From: a virus | Length of the DNA: 40,878 nucleotides | Direction: 5' to 3' (one strand) | Virus genome (UHGV): UHGV-0182401 | In this document: piece after piece, positions 4,938-10,798 of the stretch | Numbering within the stretch: the first letter of the stretch is position 1 | Layout: each line of letters opens with the position of its first letter | Translations under genes and position numbers: made by a program | Notes under the pieces: generated by a model | What the model was told of the DNA's origin: nothing | What the model saw: only the letters and a program-made list of their open reading frames with translations | Database searches by the model: none

Positions 4938-5296
4938 ACGAATATCAGTTTGTGCTTCCTTACCCGCCGTCGGTGAACACCTACTGGCGAAGACGGGGAA
5001 GCCAATACTACATCAGCGATAAAGGCCAGAAATACCGAAAAGACGTTCAGCAAATCATCCGCCAACTCAAGTTAGACATTTTCACCAAATCACGACTCCG
5101 CATCAAAGTCATCGCAGACGTTCCAGACTCCCGCCGCCGCGACCTCGACAACATCCTGAAAAGTTTACTCGACTCCCTTATCCACGCCGGATTTGCGGAA
5201 GACGACGAGCAATTCGATGACATTCGCGTAATTCGTGGTGTGAAAGTACCAGGTGGAAGACTTGGAATAAAAATCACCGAACTGGAGAACGCATGA
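4934..5296 (+). CDS. rusA: RusA Holliday-junction resolvase
   Basis: 120 aa with the conserved RRRDLDN motif and overall match to RusA. Confidence 0.9.
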   Translation: MNEYQFVLPYPPSVNTYWRRRGSQYYISDKGQKYRKDVQQIIRQLKLDIFTKSRLRIKVIADVPDSRRRDLDNILKSLLDSLIHAGFAEDDEQFDDIRVIRGVKVPGGRLGIKITELENA

Positions 5297-5478
5297 ACGC
5301 CACAATTCAAACGATACCAGAGCTTCTTATCCAGACACGAGGCAATCAGACCGAAGTGGCGAGGATGCTTTCCTGTGCAAGAGGAACAGTGCTCAAGTAC
5401 AACCGAGACAGCAAAGGTGAGCGTCACGTAATAGTTAACGGCGTCCTGATGGTAACGCCAGGCAAAAAGGGAAGATGA
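5293..5478 (+). CDS. ninH: NinH-like small DNA-binding protein
   Basis: GNQTEVARMLSCARGTVLKY matches the remembered lambda NinH core. Confidence 0.7.
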   Translation: MNATIQTIPELLIQTRGNQTEVARMLSCARGTVLKYNRDSKGERHVIVNGVLMVTPGKKGR

Positions 5479-5996
5479 TGAGCATAAGAGAACTAAACCT
5501 CACCAAAGAACAGCACGATTGGCTGAATTGCTGGCTTGAACTGTGGGGCGCATGGGTTTATTCAGGTCGTCTGGAAAAGCGCATGAGCAGCGTAATAGCG
5601 AAGTTCATGGAGAGCGTAGAGCCGGGAAGAGTTATGACAAGGCCAATGTGCAATGATGATGATGGAATGTTGATTTCTCAGGTCGTCGATTCCGTCATGT
5701 ACATTGACAAGAAAGCCTTTGGCATCCTCCTCAGCTACTACGCTCATGGTTCATCTAAGCGAGCAATTGCATCCTACTATCACGCGACTGCAAAGCCACG
5801 CAAGATGTGTGGACGTGGTGGCGAGGGATGGAGAAAACCTTCACTGGCAACCTGTAGAAACGAAATTGACGACATCCTGAAAGCGTCGTTATTTGTTTTG
5901 TACCAGCCAATGCAAAATGCTTTCAAAATGCGTAAACGTGTTGAGAAAGTTAAGCATGTTGCTGTTAAAAGCCTTGACATGCAATTATCCATTTAG
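5475..5996 (+). CDS. Late-gene antiterminator Q (Q21/QuuD-like family)
   Basis: WGAW and CNDDDGMLI motifs resemble remembered QuuD; last gene before the candidate late promoter. Confidence 0.7.
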   Translation: MMSIRELNLTKEQHDWLNCWLELWGAWVYSGRLEKRMSSVIAKFMESVEPGRVMTRPMCNDDDGMLISQVVDSVMYIDKKAFGILLSYYAHGSSKRAIASYYHATAKPRKMCGRGGEGWRKPSLATCRNEIDDILKASLFVLYQPMQNAFKMRKRVEKVKHVAVKSLDMQLSI

Positions 5997-6013
5997 CCAT
6001 AATTAGAAGGTAA

Positions 6014-6056
6014 GCTGCCGTTAGTGACTCTTAAGTTGCAATGGTGGCTTTTTTTG
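6014..6056 (+). terminator. Possible terminator downstream of Q
   Basis: Imperfect 9-bp stem with G-U pairs and a 17-nt loop, followed by TTTTTTT. Confidence 0.3.
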
Positions 6057-6132
6057 TTTGCACAACAGGTAAGAGCATTGAACCCGCAGACCTCGCGGAA
6101 TTGGTGAAAGGTGCCGCGCAGTGCTCTTATCG

Positions 6133-6263
6133 TTGTGGTGAACTCAATGGCGAGCTAGCAGATAGGCGACAGTGAAAATACTAGTCATGTAGCTGACCGC
6201 CGCGCGTACTGCAATCGGCAGCGCACCGATGGAAGCCGGTTCGATTCCGGCCGCCACAACCCA
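6133..6263 (+). other. tRNA-like element: canonical T-arm (GCCGG-TTCGATT-CCGGC), 7-bp acceptor-like pairing and CCA end, but about 131 nt long
   Basis: GGTTCGATTCC T-loop at 6238-6248; 6133-6139 pairs with 6253-6259; CCA at 6261-6263. No canonical D or anticodon arm could be folded by eye. Confidence 0.3.
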
Positions 6264-6423
6264 AACTGAGCCGTAGCCACTGGCTATCCTGAATTCATCA
6301 GTGATAGTTACGCTGCGGCCTTCTACACATGACCTTCGTGAAAGCGGGTGGTTCAATTCTGCTGTCTTCTTCACGTTAAAAGAGGAATTAGGCTTCGAAA
6401 ATGCAAAAACTTGCAAAAATGAC

Positions 6424-6452
6424 TTGAAAACGAGTTTTGAAACTGCATAATT
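6424..6452 (+). promoter_or_regulatory. Candidate late promoter (pR-prime-like): TTGAAA-N17-ATAATT
   Basis: Near-consensus -35/-10 with 17-bp spacer, downstream of Q and about 80 nt upstream of a strong terminator. Confidence 0.5.
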
Positions 6453-6534
6453 CCTATATGCTCGGACGTCAAAGGCGAAAGAGCTTACCCACCAGCGAAG
6501 ATGCCTTGTGCGGAGCGGTGGGAAACACATTCAA

Positions 6535-6565
6535 GCCCTTGCAGAAATGCAGGGGCTTTTTTATT
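6535..6565 (+). terminator. Intrinsic terminator (tR-prime-like)
   Basis: GCCCTTGCA-GAAA-TGCAGGGGC hairpin followed by TTTTTTATT; immediately upstream of the cargo cluster. Confidence 0.65.
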
Positions 6566-6592
6566 GGCTCAGTGCCACCAGGTGAACACCGT

Positions 6593-7144
6593 ATGCACAC
6601 GGCGATCATTTGCGCTTCCGGACCTTCCCTCACCCACGACGACTGCCAGAAAGCCATTGGCGCTGGATTACCCGTTATTGCGGTGAATTCTTCATGGCGC
6701 GCGGTGCCGGGATGCTCTCACATTTACGCGGGTGATCTGCGCTGGTGGGATGTGAACATTCCCGCGCTGCCCGATGGCCCCGAACGCTGGTCATGTAACC
6801 GGAGAGCACACACCCGATACGGCGTGAGCCTCTTCCCGACAGATACCAGCGGCACATTCAATTCGGGGCAGAGAGCAATCCTGTTCGCTCACTGGCTGGG
6901 TGCCAGTAGCATCATCCTTCTGGGCTTCGATTGCTCAATCTCAAACGGTAGTCACTGGCACGGCGATCACACAGTCCTCGATAACCCGACAGCAGCGAAC
7001 GTAAAGCGCTGGCATGGCGAGTTTGCCCGGGTTGCGGCGCAGCTGCGTGGAAGCGTCAATATCATCAACAGCAGCCGCCAGACGGCGCTTAATTGCTTTC
7101 GTCGCTTACCTCTTGAAGCTGCGATCAGCGAGGTTACATGCTGA
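6593..7144 (+). CDS. Cargo protein of unknown function (183 aa)
   Basis: ATG with GGTGA ribosome-binding site just after the terminator; the 6437 track start would run through the promoter and terminator. No confident family match. Confidence 0.55.
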   Translation: MHTAIICASGPSLTHDDCQKAIGAGLPVIAVNSSWRAVPGCSHIYAGDLRWWDVNIPALPDGPERWSCNRRAHTRYGVSLFPTDTSGTFNSGQRAILFAHWLGASSIILLGFDCSISNGSHWHGDHTVLDNPTAANVKRWHGEFARVAAQLRGSVNIINSSRQTALNCFRRLPLEAAISEVTC

Positions 7145-8079
7145 ATCCTCCGATTTACATCGATGGCATGCTGGGAATGGGAGATACCATTTACCAGCGC
7201 GCTTTCGTCAAACAACTGCCTGCTGGGACATTCATTAAGACGGCATGGCCGGAGCTTTACGAAGATCTGCCGGTGAAAGTTGTCCGAAGTGACACCACGC
7301 TCAGAACGCAGCGTAAAAATGAGTTTCGCAGTTCGGCAAAGTTTTATCCGCCGCCATCGCCACGACAGACGAAGCGAATATTTTACGGACCGTATGATCT
7401 GCGGCGCGGTTCGATATTTGATGCGATGCGACGCCAGTTCGGCGTAACGCCAGCAGCGCTTGATTTGCCATCCTTTGGCCCGTCGCAGTTTACGCACCAA
7501 AAGCCGATCGCCGTTATCCGTCCGGCAACGGTTCGTTCTGAATGGCGTAGCGACTCCCGAAACCCTGACCCCGATTACCTCCTGCGCGCATCGAGAATCC
7601 TGCGGAAACATTTCTGCGTGATTAGCGTTGCTGATTTGCAGGACGGGGAAGAGTGGCTGGTGGGTGAAGAACCAGAGGCGGATCTGAAAATGCACGCTGG
7701 CGAGCTCAATATCAAAGAGCTGATGCGCCTGGTTGAGCATGCCGCTGTCGTGGTTACGCCTGTTGGCTGGGCGCTGCCCGCTGCCATTGCGTACAAAACA
7801 CCTGTTTACGTTGTCGCTGGTGGGCGCGGTGGGCATAACGCTCCCGAGATAGTCACCGATCCGGCGATGGATTTATCCCGCGTTGGCTGGGCAATCCCGG
7901 ACAATTATTGTCGCTGCGAAGCGTGGGATCACCATTGCGACAAACGCATCTTCAACTTTGATTCAAAATTCGAGACATGGCTGAATGAAGTCGTTTTATC
8001 AGGAACTGAACAGCGGGCTGGTATTCCTCCCGGAGCTGGGCATCGGTCGTTATCCGGTTCCGGCATCACGCCCGTATGA
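7138..8079 (+). CDS. GT-B fold glycosyltransferase-like protein (GT9/heptosyltransferase-like motifs)
   Basis: N-terminal GMGD-type motif and C-terminal VVVTPVGWALPAAIAYKTPVYVVAGG resemble GT9 motifs; 7-nt overlap with the upstream gene. Confidence 0.55.
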   Translation: MLNPPIYIDGMLGMGDTIYQRAFVKQLPAGTFIKTAWPELYEDLPVKVVRSDTTLRTQRKNEFRSSAKFYPPPSPRQTKRIFYGPYDLRRGSIFDAMRRQFGVTPAALDLPSFGPSQFTHQKPIAVIRPATVRSEWRSDSRNPDPDYLLRASRILRKHFCVISVADLQDGEEWLVGEEPEADLKMHAGELNIKELMRLVEHAAVVVTPVGWALPAAIAYKTPVYVVAGGRGGHNAPEIVTDPAMDLSRVGWAIPDNYCRCEAWDHHCDKRIFNFDSKFETWLNEVVLSGTEQRAGIPPGAGHRSLSGSGITPV

Positions 8080-8599
8080 CGAGCAGTATTTCGCGAAGTA
8101 TCAGCAGCTTGCCGACACCGAAACAGGCAGAGCCTTAACGCAATCCCGTATTGAGCTGGTGGCGCGCCATTTTCACGGTCCTGTTCTCGACGTTGGTATC
8201 GGTGCCGGTCAGTTCGTCTCTACCCGACCGGGAACGCTTGGGTATGACATTAATCCGGCTGGTATCGCCTGGCTGAACGAGCGGGGCGCATTCGCTGACC
8301 TCTACGCCAGTCAGTGGCGCGCGCTGACGATGTGGGATGTCCTGGAGCACATCGACGAGCCGGAGCTGGCGGTACAGCAGGCTACAGAGTTTGTTTTCGT
8401 GTCGATCCCCATTTTTACCGATGCCGGAGACATTCTTCGCTCGCACCATTTCAGGAAGAACGAGCACATCTGGTATTTCACTGACGACGGTATTAAGCGC
8501 TGGTTTGCAGAGCAGGGCTTCGAATGCGCTGAACAGAACACAATCGAATGCCAGTTAGGGCGTAAGGGCGTCGCTTCGTACGCTTTCCGCCGCGTTTAG
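7985..8599 (+). CDS. Class I SAM-dependent methyltransferase
   Basis: Motif I VLDVGIGAGQF and downstream WDVLEHIDEP typical of the Rossmann-fold methyltransferases; only in-frame ATG is at 7985, giving a 95-nt overlap with the upstream gene. Confidence 0.7.
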   Translation: MKSFYQELNSGLVFLPELGIGRYPVPASRPYDEQYFAKYQQLADTETGRALTQSRIELVARHFHGPVLDVGIGAGQFVSTRPGTLGYDINPAGIAWLNERGAFADLYASQWRALTMWDVLEHIDEPELAVQQATEFVFVSIPIFTDAGDILRSHHFRKNEHIWYFTDDGIKRWFAEQGFECAEQNTIECQLGRKGVASYAFRRV

Positions 8600-8673
8600 T
8601 CCCCTCTTAGCCCATTGCATTTGGGTTTATTCCAGTTTCGCACACATCACCCGCAAACAGGCGAGGTCAACCT

Positions 8674-8832
8674 ATGAATAGCTCTCACGGGATTTTTGAA
8701 CAAACCATGAAATGGATCGCGCTATATCTGCCGTCAGTTTACGCCGGGTTATGCGCTCTGGGCATCTCAGCGCTTATCGACATACGCGCAGGGAAGCCGA
8801 AACTCTACACCGCCACTGGCGCGCTAAATTAA
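8674..8832 (+). CDS. Small hydrophobic protein (52 aa, one predicted transmembrane helix)
   Basis: ATG with GAGGT ribosome-binding site; hydrophobic stretch WIALYLPSVYAGLCALGISALI; just upstream of the holin. Below the ORF-track cutoff. Confidence 0.4.
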   Translation: MNSSHGIFEQTMKWIALYLPSVYAGLCALGISALIDIRAGKPKLYTATGALN

Positions 8833-8863
8833 ATAGAGCAAATCCCCTTATTGTGGGTAAGAC

Positions 8864-9187
8864 ATGAAGATGCCAGAAAAACATGACCTGTTAGCCGCCA
8901 TTCTCGCGGCAAAGGAACAAGGCATCGGGGCAATCCTTGCGTTTGCAATGGCGTACCTTCGCGGCAGATATAATGGCGGTGCGTTTACAAAAACAGTAAT
9001 CGACGCAACGATGTGCGCCATTATCGCCTGGTTCATTCGTGACCTTCTCGACTTCGCCGGACTAAGTAGCAATCTCGCTTATATAACGAGCGTGTTCATC
9101 GGCTACATCGGTACTGACTCGATTGGTTCGCTTATCAAACGCTTCGCTGCTAAAAAAGCCGGAGTAGAAGATGGTGGAAATCAATAA
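8864..9187 (+). CDS. S: Holin, lambda S type
   Basis: 107 aa, essentially identical to remembered lambda S, including the MKM dual-start motif. Confidence 0.9.
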
Positions 9188-9647
9188 TCAACGTAAGGCG
9201 TTCCTCGATATGCTGGCGTGGTCAGAGGGAACTGATAACGGACGTCAGAAAACCAGAAATCATGGTTATGACGTCATTGTAGGCGGAGAGCTATTCACTG
9301 ATTACTCTGATCACCCTCGCAAACTTGTCACGCTAAATCCGAAACTCAAATCAACAGCCGCCGGACGCTACCAGCTTCTTTCCCGTTGGTGGGATGCCTA
9401 CCGCAAGCAGCTTGGCCTGAAAGACTTCTCTCCGAAAAGCCAGGACGCTGTGGCATTGCAACAGATTAAAGAGCGTGGCGCTTTACCGATGATTGACCGC
9501 GGTGATATTCGTCAGGCAATCGACCGTTGCAGCAATATCTGGGCTTCACTGCCGGGCGCTGGTTATGGCCAGTTCGAGCATAAGGCTGACAGCCTGATTG
9601 CAAAATTCAAAGAGGCTGGCGGAACGGTCAGAGAGATTGAGGTATGA
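9171..9647 (+). CDS. R: Endolysin, lambda R type (lytic transglycosylase)
   Basis: 158 aa, near-identical to remembered lambda R. Confidence 0.9.
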
Positions 9648-10081
9648 GCAGAGTCACCGCGATTATCTCCGCTCTGGTTATCTGCATCATCGTTTGCCTG
9701 TCATGGGCTGTTAATCATTACCGGGATAACGCCATCGCCTACAAAGCCCAGCGCGACAAAGCCACATCCATCATCGCTGACATGCAGAAGCGTCAACGTG
9801 ATGTAGCAGAACTTGACGCCAGATACACAAAGGAGCTTGCTGATGCTAACGCGACTATCGAAAGTCTCCGTGCTGATGTTTCTGCTGGTCGTAAGCGCCT
9901 GCAAGTCGCCGCCACCTGTGCAAAGTCAACGACCGGAGCCAGCAGCATGGGCGATGGAGAAAGCCCAAGACTTACAGCAGATGCTGAACTCAATTATTAC
10001 CGTCTCCGAAGTGGAATCGACAGGATAACCGCGCAGGTTAACTACCTGCAGGAATACATCAGGACGCAATGCCTGAAATAA
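9644..10081 (+). CDS. Rz: Rz spanin (inner-membrane subunit)
   Basis: N-terminal transmembrane segment and strong match to lambda Rz in the first 40 residues. Confidence 0.85.
9843..10028 (+). CDS. Rz1: Rz1 spanin lipoprotein, embedded in the +1 frame of Rz
   Basis: Signal peptide [20 protein letters not shown] with lipobox VSAC and a proline-rich mature region, wholly inside Rz. Confidence 0.7.
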
Positions 10082-10279
10082 TTTTTTTGCAAATCACAAA
10101 GTCAATTTAATGAGCCTCGCGATGCGGGGCTTTTTATATCTGAATTTCACAGCGCATCTCACGCGCATATTAACGAGAGCCTTTCAGTAAGCGAGCCTGA
10201 GAAATGCCGTTATAGGTGGCGACCTCTCTCGGGCGGCTTTTCTGTGAGACAGGCTCACTTTCTAAAAGGTAAAGACGCT

Positions 10280-10798
10280 ATGAATCATCAATTGGCTAAT
10301 CTCGATTTCCGGGACATGGTGGTTGTTTCTGGTGATCGCGTGATCACAACCTCCCGCAAGGTAGCAGCTTACTTCGACAAGCAGCATCACCACATCATTC
10401 AGAAAATCGAAAAGCTAGACTGTTCGGATGAATTTCTAACCAGCAACTTTTCGCGGGTTACCTATGAACACAAGGGTAATCAGTATGTTGAATATGAAAT
10501 TTCCAAAGACGGCGCGATGTACATCATCATGTCGTTTACCGGCAAAAAAGCTGCCGCCATCAAAGAGGCGTTTATCAAAGCATTTAATTGGATGCGTGAC
10601 AGGCTGATGGAGATGGCTCACTCATACCAAAGAGAGCACAACGAGTTAATGCTGGAGTTCATGAAGGAAAAGGATGTTGCCAGTATGTCAGGACGCTTGC
10701 TGAACCGCTGGGGCAGGATCAAAAAACCGCAACTCATAGCAAGAATCGAAAGGCTTGAGCAGCAGGCGCAAATATCGATCCCCGGACTGCCAAAGTGA
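10280..10798 (+). CDS. rha: Rha-family phage regulatory protein
   Basis: N-terminal region resembles the Rha domain; start chosen at MNHQLANL. Confidence 0.65.
   Translation: MNHQLANLDFRDMVVVSGDRVITTSRKVAAYFDKQHHHIIQKIEKLDCSDEFLTSNFSRVTYEHKGNQYVEYEISKDGAMYIIMSFTGKKAAAIKEAFIKAFNWMRDRLMEMAHSYQREHNELMLEFMKEKDVASMSGRLLNRWGRIKKPQLIARIERLEQQAQISIPGLPK

Follow-up and report, generated by a model that had tools for sequence, protein, structure and literature searches.

The DNA analysed here (the window) is a 40,878-nucleotide stretch of viral sequence that carries four lysis genes on its plus strand at positions 8864-10081. The ORF list and the sequence give the order S, R and Rz, with Rz1 nested in Rz, and all of the ORFs are full length. 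S (8864-9187) has 107 codons, R (9171-9647) overlaps S by 17 nt, Rz (9644-10081, 145 aa) overlaps R by 4 nt (ATGA), and Rz1 (9843-10028, 61 aa) lies wholly inside Rz. An earlier note on this DNA had described four lysis genes at this place with a holin starting MKM, and the ORFs are found exactly there. A consensus scan also detected a terminator-like GC hairpin with a T run after Rz (10112-10132, plus strand); the HK75 annotation has a terminator at the corresponding position.

Profile and structure searches assigned these proteins to lysis families, with matches of cassette proteins to PHROG lysis families at 1e-40 to 1.5e-72. S matched Pfam Phage_holin_3_1 (PF05106) at 2.4e-30 (105.3 bits, cut-off 23.8) and TIGR01594, holin_lambda, at 2.6e-37 (127.3 bits, cut-off 55.05), which makes it a lambda-family class I holin. 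Rz matched Phage_lysis (PF03245) at 2.4e-36 (125.2 bits, cut-off 25.4) and PHROG 13 at 1.5e-72. Hydropathy shows a single N-terminal hydrophobic segment in Rz, residues ~1-26, as the transmembrane domain (TMD) of an i-spanin. R is a lambda-type lytic transglycosylase that matches the lambda lysozyme structure PDB 1am7 over residues 1-158 (2.6e-105) and the endolysin family PHROG 90 (1.6e-63). Pfam and NCBIfam searches gave no family for R, so its assignment rests on the PDB and PHROG matches and on the alignment with lambda. R keeps the catalytic Glu19 and has no hydrophobic segment, hence no signal-anchor-release domain. These features indicate a soluble, holin-dependent endolysin.

The earlier note had also called the holin and the embedded spanin near-identical to those of lambda. 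This applies to S, in which 106 of 107 residues are identical to lambda S (99.1%), and it extends to R (156/158, 98.7%), but it does not apply to the spanin pair. Rz is identical to lambda Rz at 90 of 154 positions (58.4%) and is 145 rather than 153 aa long, and its periplasmic Cys92 and Cys143 are the counterparts of lambda C99 and C152. Rz1 shares only 24 of 63 positions with lambda Rz1 (38.1%). At the DNA level, 909 of 934 nucleotides match lambda over 8827-9760 (97%), and the similarity collapses after ~9760, about 80 nt before the start of Rz1. Sliding identity to lambda drops at 9756-9764, about codon 39 of Rz, with lambda-like sequence to the left and HK97-type sequence to the right, and the matches of three IMG/VR relatives to the window stop at 9756-9760. 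Relative to lambda, Rz is by alignment a mosaic of lambda-like and HK97-type sequence with its joint near 9760. Alignment to lambda therefore succeeds for S, R and codons 1-39 of Rz and fails for the remainder of Rz and for Rz1. The earlier note was right about the divergence of the neighbouring modules from lambda: 8827-9892 is the longest stretch of the window that matches lambda, and the flanks have no such match.

Rz1 starts 199 nt after the start of Rz, which places it in the +1 frame, as in lambda. An AAGGAG Shine-Dalgarno sequence (9830-9835, read from the sequence) stands 7 nt before its ATG. The protein has matches to PF06085, 'Lipoprotein Rz1 precursor' (2.2e-20), and to PHROG 3198 (4.1e-29). 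It satisfies the PROSITE lipoprotein rule PS51257, with R4, K7, a hydrophobic core and the lipobox VSAC (9891-9902), which holds Cys20. On this rule and on family membership, Rz1 is a predicted lipoprotein, with a mature form of 42 aa that starts Cys20-Lys21. An Asp at the +2 position of a lipoprotein is an inner-membrane retention signal, and other residues lead to outer-membrane sorting. The +2 residue of Rz1 is Lys, not Asp. The description of a spanin gene contained entirely in Rz, out of frame and with a lipobox of its own, is thus borne out.

The 'HK97' o-spanin family, which includes HK97, HK75, HK022, mEpX2, P22, Sf6 and epsilon34, has been defined as separate from the 'Lambda' family (Kongari et al. 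2018, PMC6139136). The window Rz1 is identical to mEpX2 Rz1 at all 61 residues and to HK75 Rz1 at 60 of 61. Its only Cys is that of the lipobox, lambda Cys29 being absent, and it has PPP where lambda has PPPPP, with 5 Pro in total compared with 11 in lambda. On its 24/63 identity and its lack of both Cys29 and the penta-proline, it falls outside the lambda o-spanin family (Rz1 of lambda, 933W, Gifsy-2 and others), and sequence comparison places it in the HK97 family. A periplasmic Cys is likewise absent from every VSAC-type Rz1 allele surveyed (~65). The lambda spanin needs a homodimer disulfide at Rz C152 or Rz1 C29, either one (PMC5295617; PMC6139136). Since Rz1 has no periplasmic Cys here, spanin function presumably depends, by analogy with lambda, on a disulfide at Rz Cys143.

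We considered whether the embedded +1 ORF could be a chance open frame that is not expressed, with the outer membrane disrupted by something else. Among 5000 synonymous-codon shuffles of Rz, 1532 (31%) kept a +1 ORF of at least 61 codons. This is what a chance frame would predict, and we dropped ORF length as evidence for Rz1. A +1 ORF with a lipobox, by contrast, appeared in just 45 of the 5000 (0.9%), and the ORF is preceded by a consensus Shine-Dalgarno sequence at ideal spacing. We surveyed 96 IMG/VR loci in which a lambda-type S leader is followed by enough downstream DNA; 89 of them had S, R and Rz together with a +1 lipobox ORF inside Rz. The commonest Rz1 allele among the surveyed loci is exactly that of the window, and behind a lambda-type S, loci with VSAC-Lys (HK97-type) Rz1 far outnumber those with the lambda type. 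In addition, lambda Rz1 is experimentally essential (PMC5295617). It is the two profile scores for Rz1 that decide the matter, and because of them we set a chance origin aside as wildly improbable.

Over its full 1218 nt, the cassette is 97-98.4% identical in DNA to mEpX2, HK75, HK446, HK544, HK97, HK022, CUS-3 and Sf101. Compared with the mEpX2 proteins, 106 of 107 residues are identical in S, 158 of 158 in R and 143 of 145 in Rz, in addition to the complete identity of Rz1. The same four genes are annotated in mEpX2/HK75/HK97/HK022-type phages, including the 'dual start motif' and Rz1. This degree of identity to characterised phage genes, in the DNA as in Rz1, means that the module is already known. 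By these comparisons its nearest relatives are mEpX2, HK75, HK97 and HK022, not lambda. The Citrobacter phage Omnitron was rejected as a relative at this locus: it is the top phage match for the whole window, but its S is 73% identical, it lacks the insert described below and it does not share the cassette. If all four genes, spanins included, were near-identical lambda alleles, the 97-99% likeness of S, R and Rz codons 1-39 would be accounted for. The low identities of Rz and Rz1, the missing Cys29 and penta-proline, and an Rz1 identical to that of mEpX2, a member of the HK97 family, already refute this idea, and we give it practically no credence. We are instead highly confident that 8864-10081 holds a lambdoid lysis cassette that is intact and belongs to the HK97/HK022/mEpX2 allelic type, and nothing contradicts its assignment as a lysis cassette.

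Upstream, positions 5400-6351 of the window are 98.5% identical to HK75. A candidate late promoter pR' (5974-6003, plus strand, TTGACA-18-CATAAT) scored 11/12 in a consensus scan and maps onto HK75 pR'; it overlaps the end of the Q gene (5478-5996). The terminator tR', the target of Q antitermination, is placed at 6013-6054 (plus strand) by transferring its position from the HK75 annotation by homology. Between tR' and S the window has 2475 bp (6352-8826), compared with 117 bp in lambda (45033-45148). Within this insert lie genes at 6593-7144, 7138-8079 and 7985-8599, followed by a 52-aa ORF at 8674-8832, and no tRNA genes were found between Q and S. As a result, pR' and S are now ~2.9 kb apart, with a terminator-like hairpin from the consensus scan between them (6533-6558). 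Late expression would depend on Q-modified polymerase reading through this ~2.9 kb.

The 52-aa ORF (plus strand) is the 5' remnant of another holin gene of the lambda family, of which it keeps the first 51 codons. Over residues 1-51 it does not differ from the holin of the E. coli I3 prophage, a 110-aa protein that matches PF05106 at 5.5e-16 and aligns to the window S with 28% identity over 64 aligned residues. Two E. coli prophages, I3 (99.75% identical) and 730V1 (94.7%), share the insert over 6428-8827 and 6348-8827, respectively, both ending at 8827 exactly. Position 8827 is the left joint; it lies at a CTAA microhomology, and the 52-aa ORF stops where the lambda-type leader starts. On the right, base-by-base comparison shows that identity to I3 resumes in the last 36 nt of Rz (10046-10081), the right-hand joint of the swapped-in cassette. 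The window equals I3 at every base of this segment, compared with 3 mismatches to mEpX2, and I3 retains a 30-aa Rz C-terminal remnant at the equivalent place.

The simplest reading of these joints is module replacement, in which an HK97-type S-R-Rz/Rz1 module would have replaced a resident holin-GH19-LysB/C module between 8827 and ~10046. Illegitimate recombination would have made the left joint, truncating the resident holin gene, and homologous exchange within the 3' end of Rz would have made the right one.

We then considered how widely this recombinant is distributed. Exact-pattern scans of GTDB representative genomes, IMG/VR and JGI metagenomes gave no match to the 8827 junction, and none of the 50,697 phage records or 5,426 complete E. 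coli genomes searched by BLAST spanned it. An exact-protein look-up, however, found the exact 52-aa product indexed in 61 blocks of assemblies, which indicates that the earlier negatives reflect the content of those collections and not rarity. In all six places that were read, the junction and the T variant of the leader (see below) are identical to those of the window, and we withdrew the view that the junction is unique. In these six places the block 6554-10135 is 98.8-100% identical, with different Q genes upstream and different genes downstream. Over the 6159 nt compared, two 41-kb metagenome contigs (JGI 3300045988 Ga0495776_008131 and an ENA scaffold) agree with the window at every position. 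The recurrence of the junction among varied flanks, together with these two contigs, indicates that the recombinant is established and mobile rather than a one-off.

S opens with ATG AAG ATG (8864-8872), encoding Met1-Lys2-Met3, a dual-start motif in which two Met flank a basic residue. By analogy with lambda, Met1 would start the S107 antiholin and Met3 (8870) the S105 holin. In lambda, four elements control these starts: a GGGGG Shine-Dalgarno sequence for Met1, a stem-loop at nt -21 to -7 that gates it, a UAAG sequence for Met3 and an intragenic stem-loop at +31 to +47, and S105 and S107 are normally made at about 2:1 (bioRxiv 10.1101/2025.05.14.654169). Two of these elements are identical to lambda in the window, namely UAAG (8858-8861), the unusual Shine-Dalgarno sequence for Met3, and the intragenic stem-loop (8894-8910), which helps to partition initiation (roles per bioRxiv 10.1101/2025.05.14.654169; both on the plus strand). 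The sole change near the intragenic stem-loop is a synonymous G-to-A at 8893 (nt +30), just outside the stem. Alignment with lambda and mEpX2 places the counterpart of the sdi stem-loop and of the Met1 Shine-Dalgarno sequence at 8842-8858 (plus strand), and here a G-to-T change at 8854 (nt -10) converts GGGGG to GTGGG and breaks one C-G pair of the stem. The sdi hairpin is predicted at -9.9 kcal/mol for lambda but at -3.9 kcal/mol for the window, a loss of 6 kcal/mol.

Since the upstream RNA element that sets S107:S105 carries this change while the MKM codons are intact, we infer a lambda-like start partition rather than read it off directly. The substitution should leave the site more open and the Shine-Dalgarno sequence poorer. 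These effects are opposed, so a shift in S107:S105 cannot be predicted; the modelled hairpins suggest that the antiholin:holin ratio may differ from lambda's in either direction. It is possible, though we lean against it, that dual-start control has been retuned or lost through the change at 8854, leaving MKM in place with an S107:S105 ratio and a lysis timing unlike lambda's. The weakened hairpin and the location of the changed base in the element that serves Met1 are consistent with such retuning. So is the recurrence of the variant, which was found in 12 IMG/VR contigs compared with at least 120 that have the lambda form, and in all six of the junction places read. Against it, Met1, Lys2, Met3, UAAG and the intragenic stem-loop are unchanged, and the mutation has two effects that act in opposite directions. 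Retuning would in any case modify, and not replace, the assignment as a lambdoid lysis cassette.

The T-variant leader is a recurrent natural allele. We ruled out that it is tied to the insert: all 12 of the variant-bearing IMG/VR contigs lack the insert, and their backgrounds are varied. The 52-aa remnant keeps a Shine-Dalgarno sequence, TMD1 and the start of TMD2. One could imagine that the remnant and the G-to-T leader together form a functional modifier of lysis timing rather than debris, in which a small antiholin-like membrane peptide would be made just before S and would move with the insert and S-R-Rz as a fixed unit across phage backbones. We regard this as improbable.

The truncated holin gene immediately upstream also records a past rearrangement, which would fit a cassette that is decaying in a defective prophage and has lost its function. 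The cassette itself argues otherwise: its four ORFs are full length, its R and Rz1 proteins are identical to those of the isolated phage mEpX2, and Glu19 is kept. The window, moreover, has the full set of phage-sized ORFs, and its terminase, portal and other structural genes have matches in related phages. We consider decay very improbable.

The earlier note read the locus functionally as a dual-start holin with an out-of-frame o-spanin in the i-spanin gene, and the HMM, PHROG, PDB, frame and lipobox tests agree with this reading. In the mechanism that we propose, Q-modified RNA polymerase from pR' would read through tR', and the cassette would supply the first conserved genes of the late operon. 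S105, made from Met3, would act as the holin, accumulating in the inner membrane and then triggering into large holes. S107, made from Met1 with an extra Met-Lys, would act as the antiholin and delay triggering. R would escape through the holes and degrade murein. Rz, a putative type II inner-membrane protein, and Rz1, a putative outer-membrane lipoprotein, would assemble into a spanin complex that reaches across the periplasm and removes the outer membrane. The two S products and their ratio, the lipid modification and outer-membrane sorting of Rz1, and the Rz-Rz1 complex are carried over from lambda genetics and are likely by analogy.

For annotation, these data call for a correction: the cassette is of the HK97/mEpX2 type and not lambda's, and its Rz1 belongs to another o-spanin family, one without the Rz1 disulfide. 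Both the dual-start holin and the embedded Rz1 are overlapping-gene devices of the textbook kind, and several sequenced phages have this combination of alleles annotated. It is the commonest layout in the surveyed IMG/VR loci. It carries little weight for discovery and would not surprise phage-lysis specialists. We regard the variant leader and the remnant of the holin gene as minor curiosities. The locus does, however, illustrate module exchange cleanly, with its two joints both in view, and is modestly instructive for phage mosaicism.

Set against known systems, the window shares its architecture, frames and overlaps with the S-R-Rz-Rz1 cassette of lambda. It keeps the MKM dual start, UAAG and the intragenic stem-loop of lambda, whereas the sdi stem has G-to-T at -10. 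Downstream of the cassette, the window has a Rha-family gene on the same strand, whereas lambda has bor on the opposite strand. The I3 and 730V1 prophages continue past 8827 with a full 110-aa lambda-family holin and a GH19 endolysin, which belongs to another endolysin family than R. I3 has overlapped spanin genes that we read as LysB/LysC-type, in contrast to the embedded Rz/Rz1 of the window, while its downstream backbone is also common to the window. The phages mEpX2, HK75, HK97 and HK022 (Hendrixvirinae), as well as CUS-3 and Sf101, have the same gene order and overlaps and the same terminator after Rz. In these phages, S lies ~0.4-0.5 kb past pR', whereas the window has the 2.5-kb insert and the holin-gene remnant in between. 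The mEpX2 leader has the lambda form, GGGGG, in place of GTGGG, and in the last 36 nt of Rz the window follows the I3-type backbone and not mEpX2. With the HK97 o-spanin family, the window shares the embedded +1 layout, the VSAC lipobox, Lys at +2 and the lack of a periplasmic Cys, and we found no differences.

Upstream of S, the holin gene of the lysis cassette (8864-9187), the window carries the remains of a second holin. Codons 1-51 of a 52-aa ORF at 8674-8832 are the 5' part of another lambda-family holin gene, which is cut off at 8827, the left recombination joint of the swapped-in cassette. The E. coli prophages I3 and 730V1, which share the window's upstream insert (described below) up to this joint and then carry a different lysis cassette, encode an intact 110-aa version of this holin, whereas only the first 51 codons are found in the window. 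The truncated ORF retains a GAGG Shine-Dalgarno sequence. Its exact product was found in 61 assembly blocks of an exact-protein index, and in all six of the places read the ORF lay immediately upstream of S.

The I3 prophage carries a remnant of its own. The 30 C-terminal residues of an Rz spanin are encoded at 5270-5359 of the I3 sequence (L136, in its own coordinates), where the annotation gives a partial 'lysis protein' pseudogene, 3' of the prophage's LysB/LysC-type spanins. This Rz remnant mirrors the window's holin remnant and suggests that cassettes have been replaced repeatedly at this site.

Between tR', a terminator early in the late operon (6013-6054), and S lies a 2.5-kb insert of three genes (6352-8826), in the interval where stx sits in Stx phages. 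The first gene (6593-7144) belongs to PHROG 4603, annotated 'alpha-2,3-sialyltransferase', and gave a weak, sub-threshold Pfam match to MptE-like proteins. The second (7138-8079) encodes 313 aa of PHROG 6804, a family annotated as unknown, and had no match in Pfam and PDB searches. The third (7985-8599) is a Methyltransf_23 methyltransferase ORF that overlaps the second in a different frame by 95 nt (7985-8079). An identical overlap appears in the PGAP annotation of I3 and 730V1, and the real methyltransferase start may lie further downstream than 7985. Together these genes may form a moron for glycan modification, with expression driven by late transcription.

A strong terminator-like hairpin (6533-6558; 11-bp stem and T run) lies within the late operon, 3' of tR' and 5' of the first insert gene. 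Citrobacter phage Omnitron also has this hairpin, with 94% identity over 6348-6561. At 8854, upstream of S, G is replaced by T in lambda's sdi stem-loop and the GGGGG Shine-Dalgarno sequence serving Met1 of S. The T allele occurs naturally but in the minority, in 12 IMG/VR contigs as against at least 120 that have lambda's sequence, and is not linked to the insert.

Joined to the lambdoid early and lysis regions is a structural module (11151-31700) with no similarity to lambda head and tail genes. Its best matches are named vB_EcoM and annotated tail-sheath or DUF3383; the module matches the vB_EcoM-606R2 group (89%), Salmonella phage SEN34 (86%) and Hafnia phage yong1 (80%). Downstream of Rz, the window encodes a plus-strand Rha-family regulator/ORF11CD3-domain gene (10244-10798), whereas lambda has bor at this position on the opposite strand and relatives with the same lysis cassette have KilA-N or HNH genes instead.
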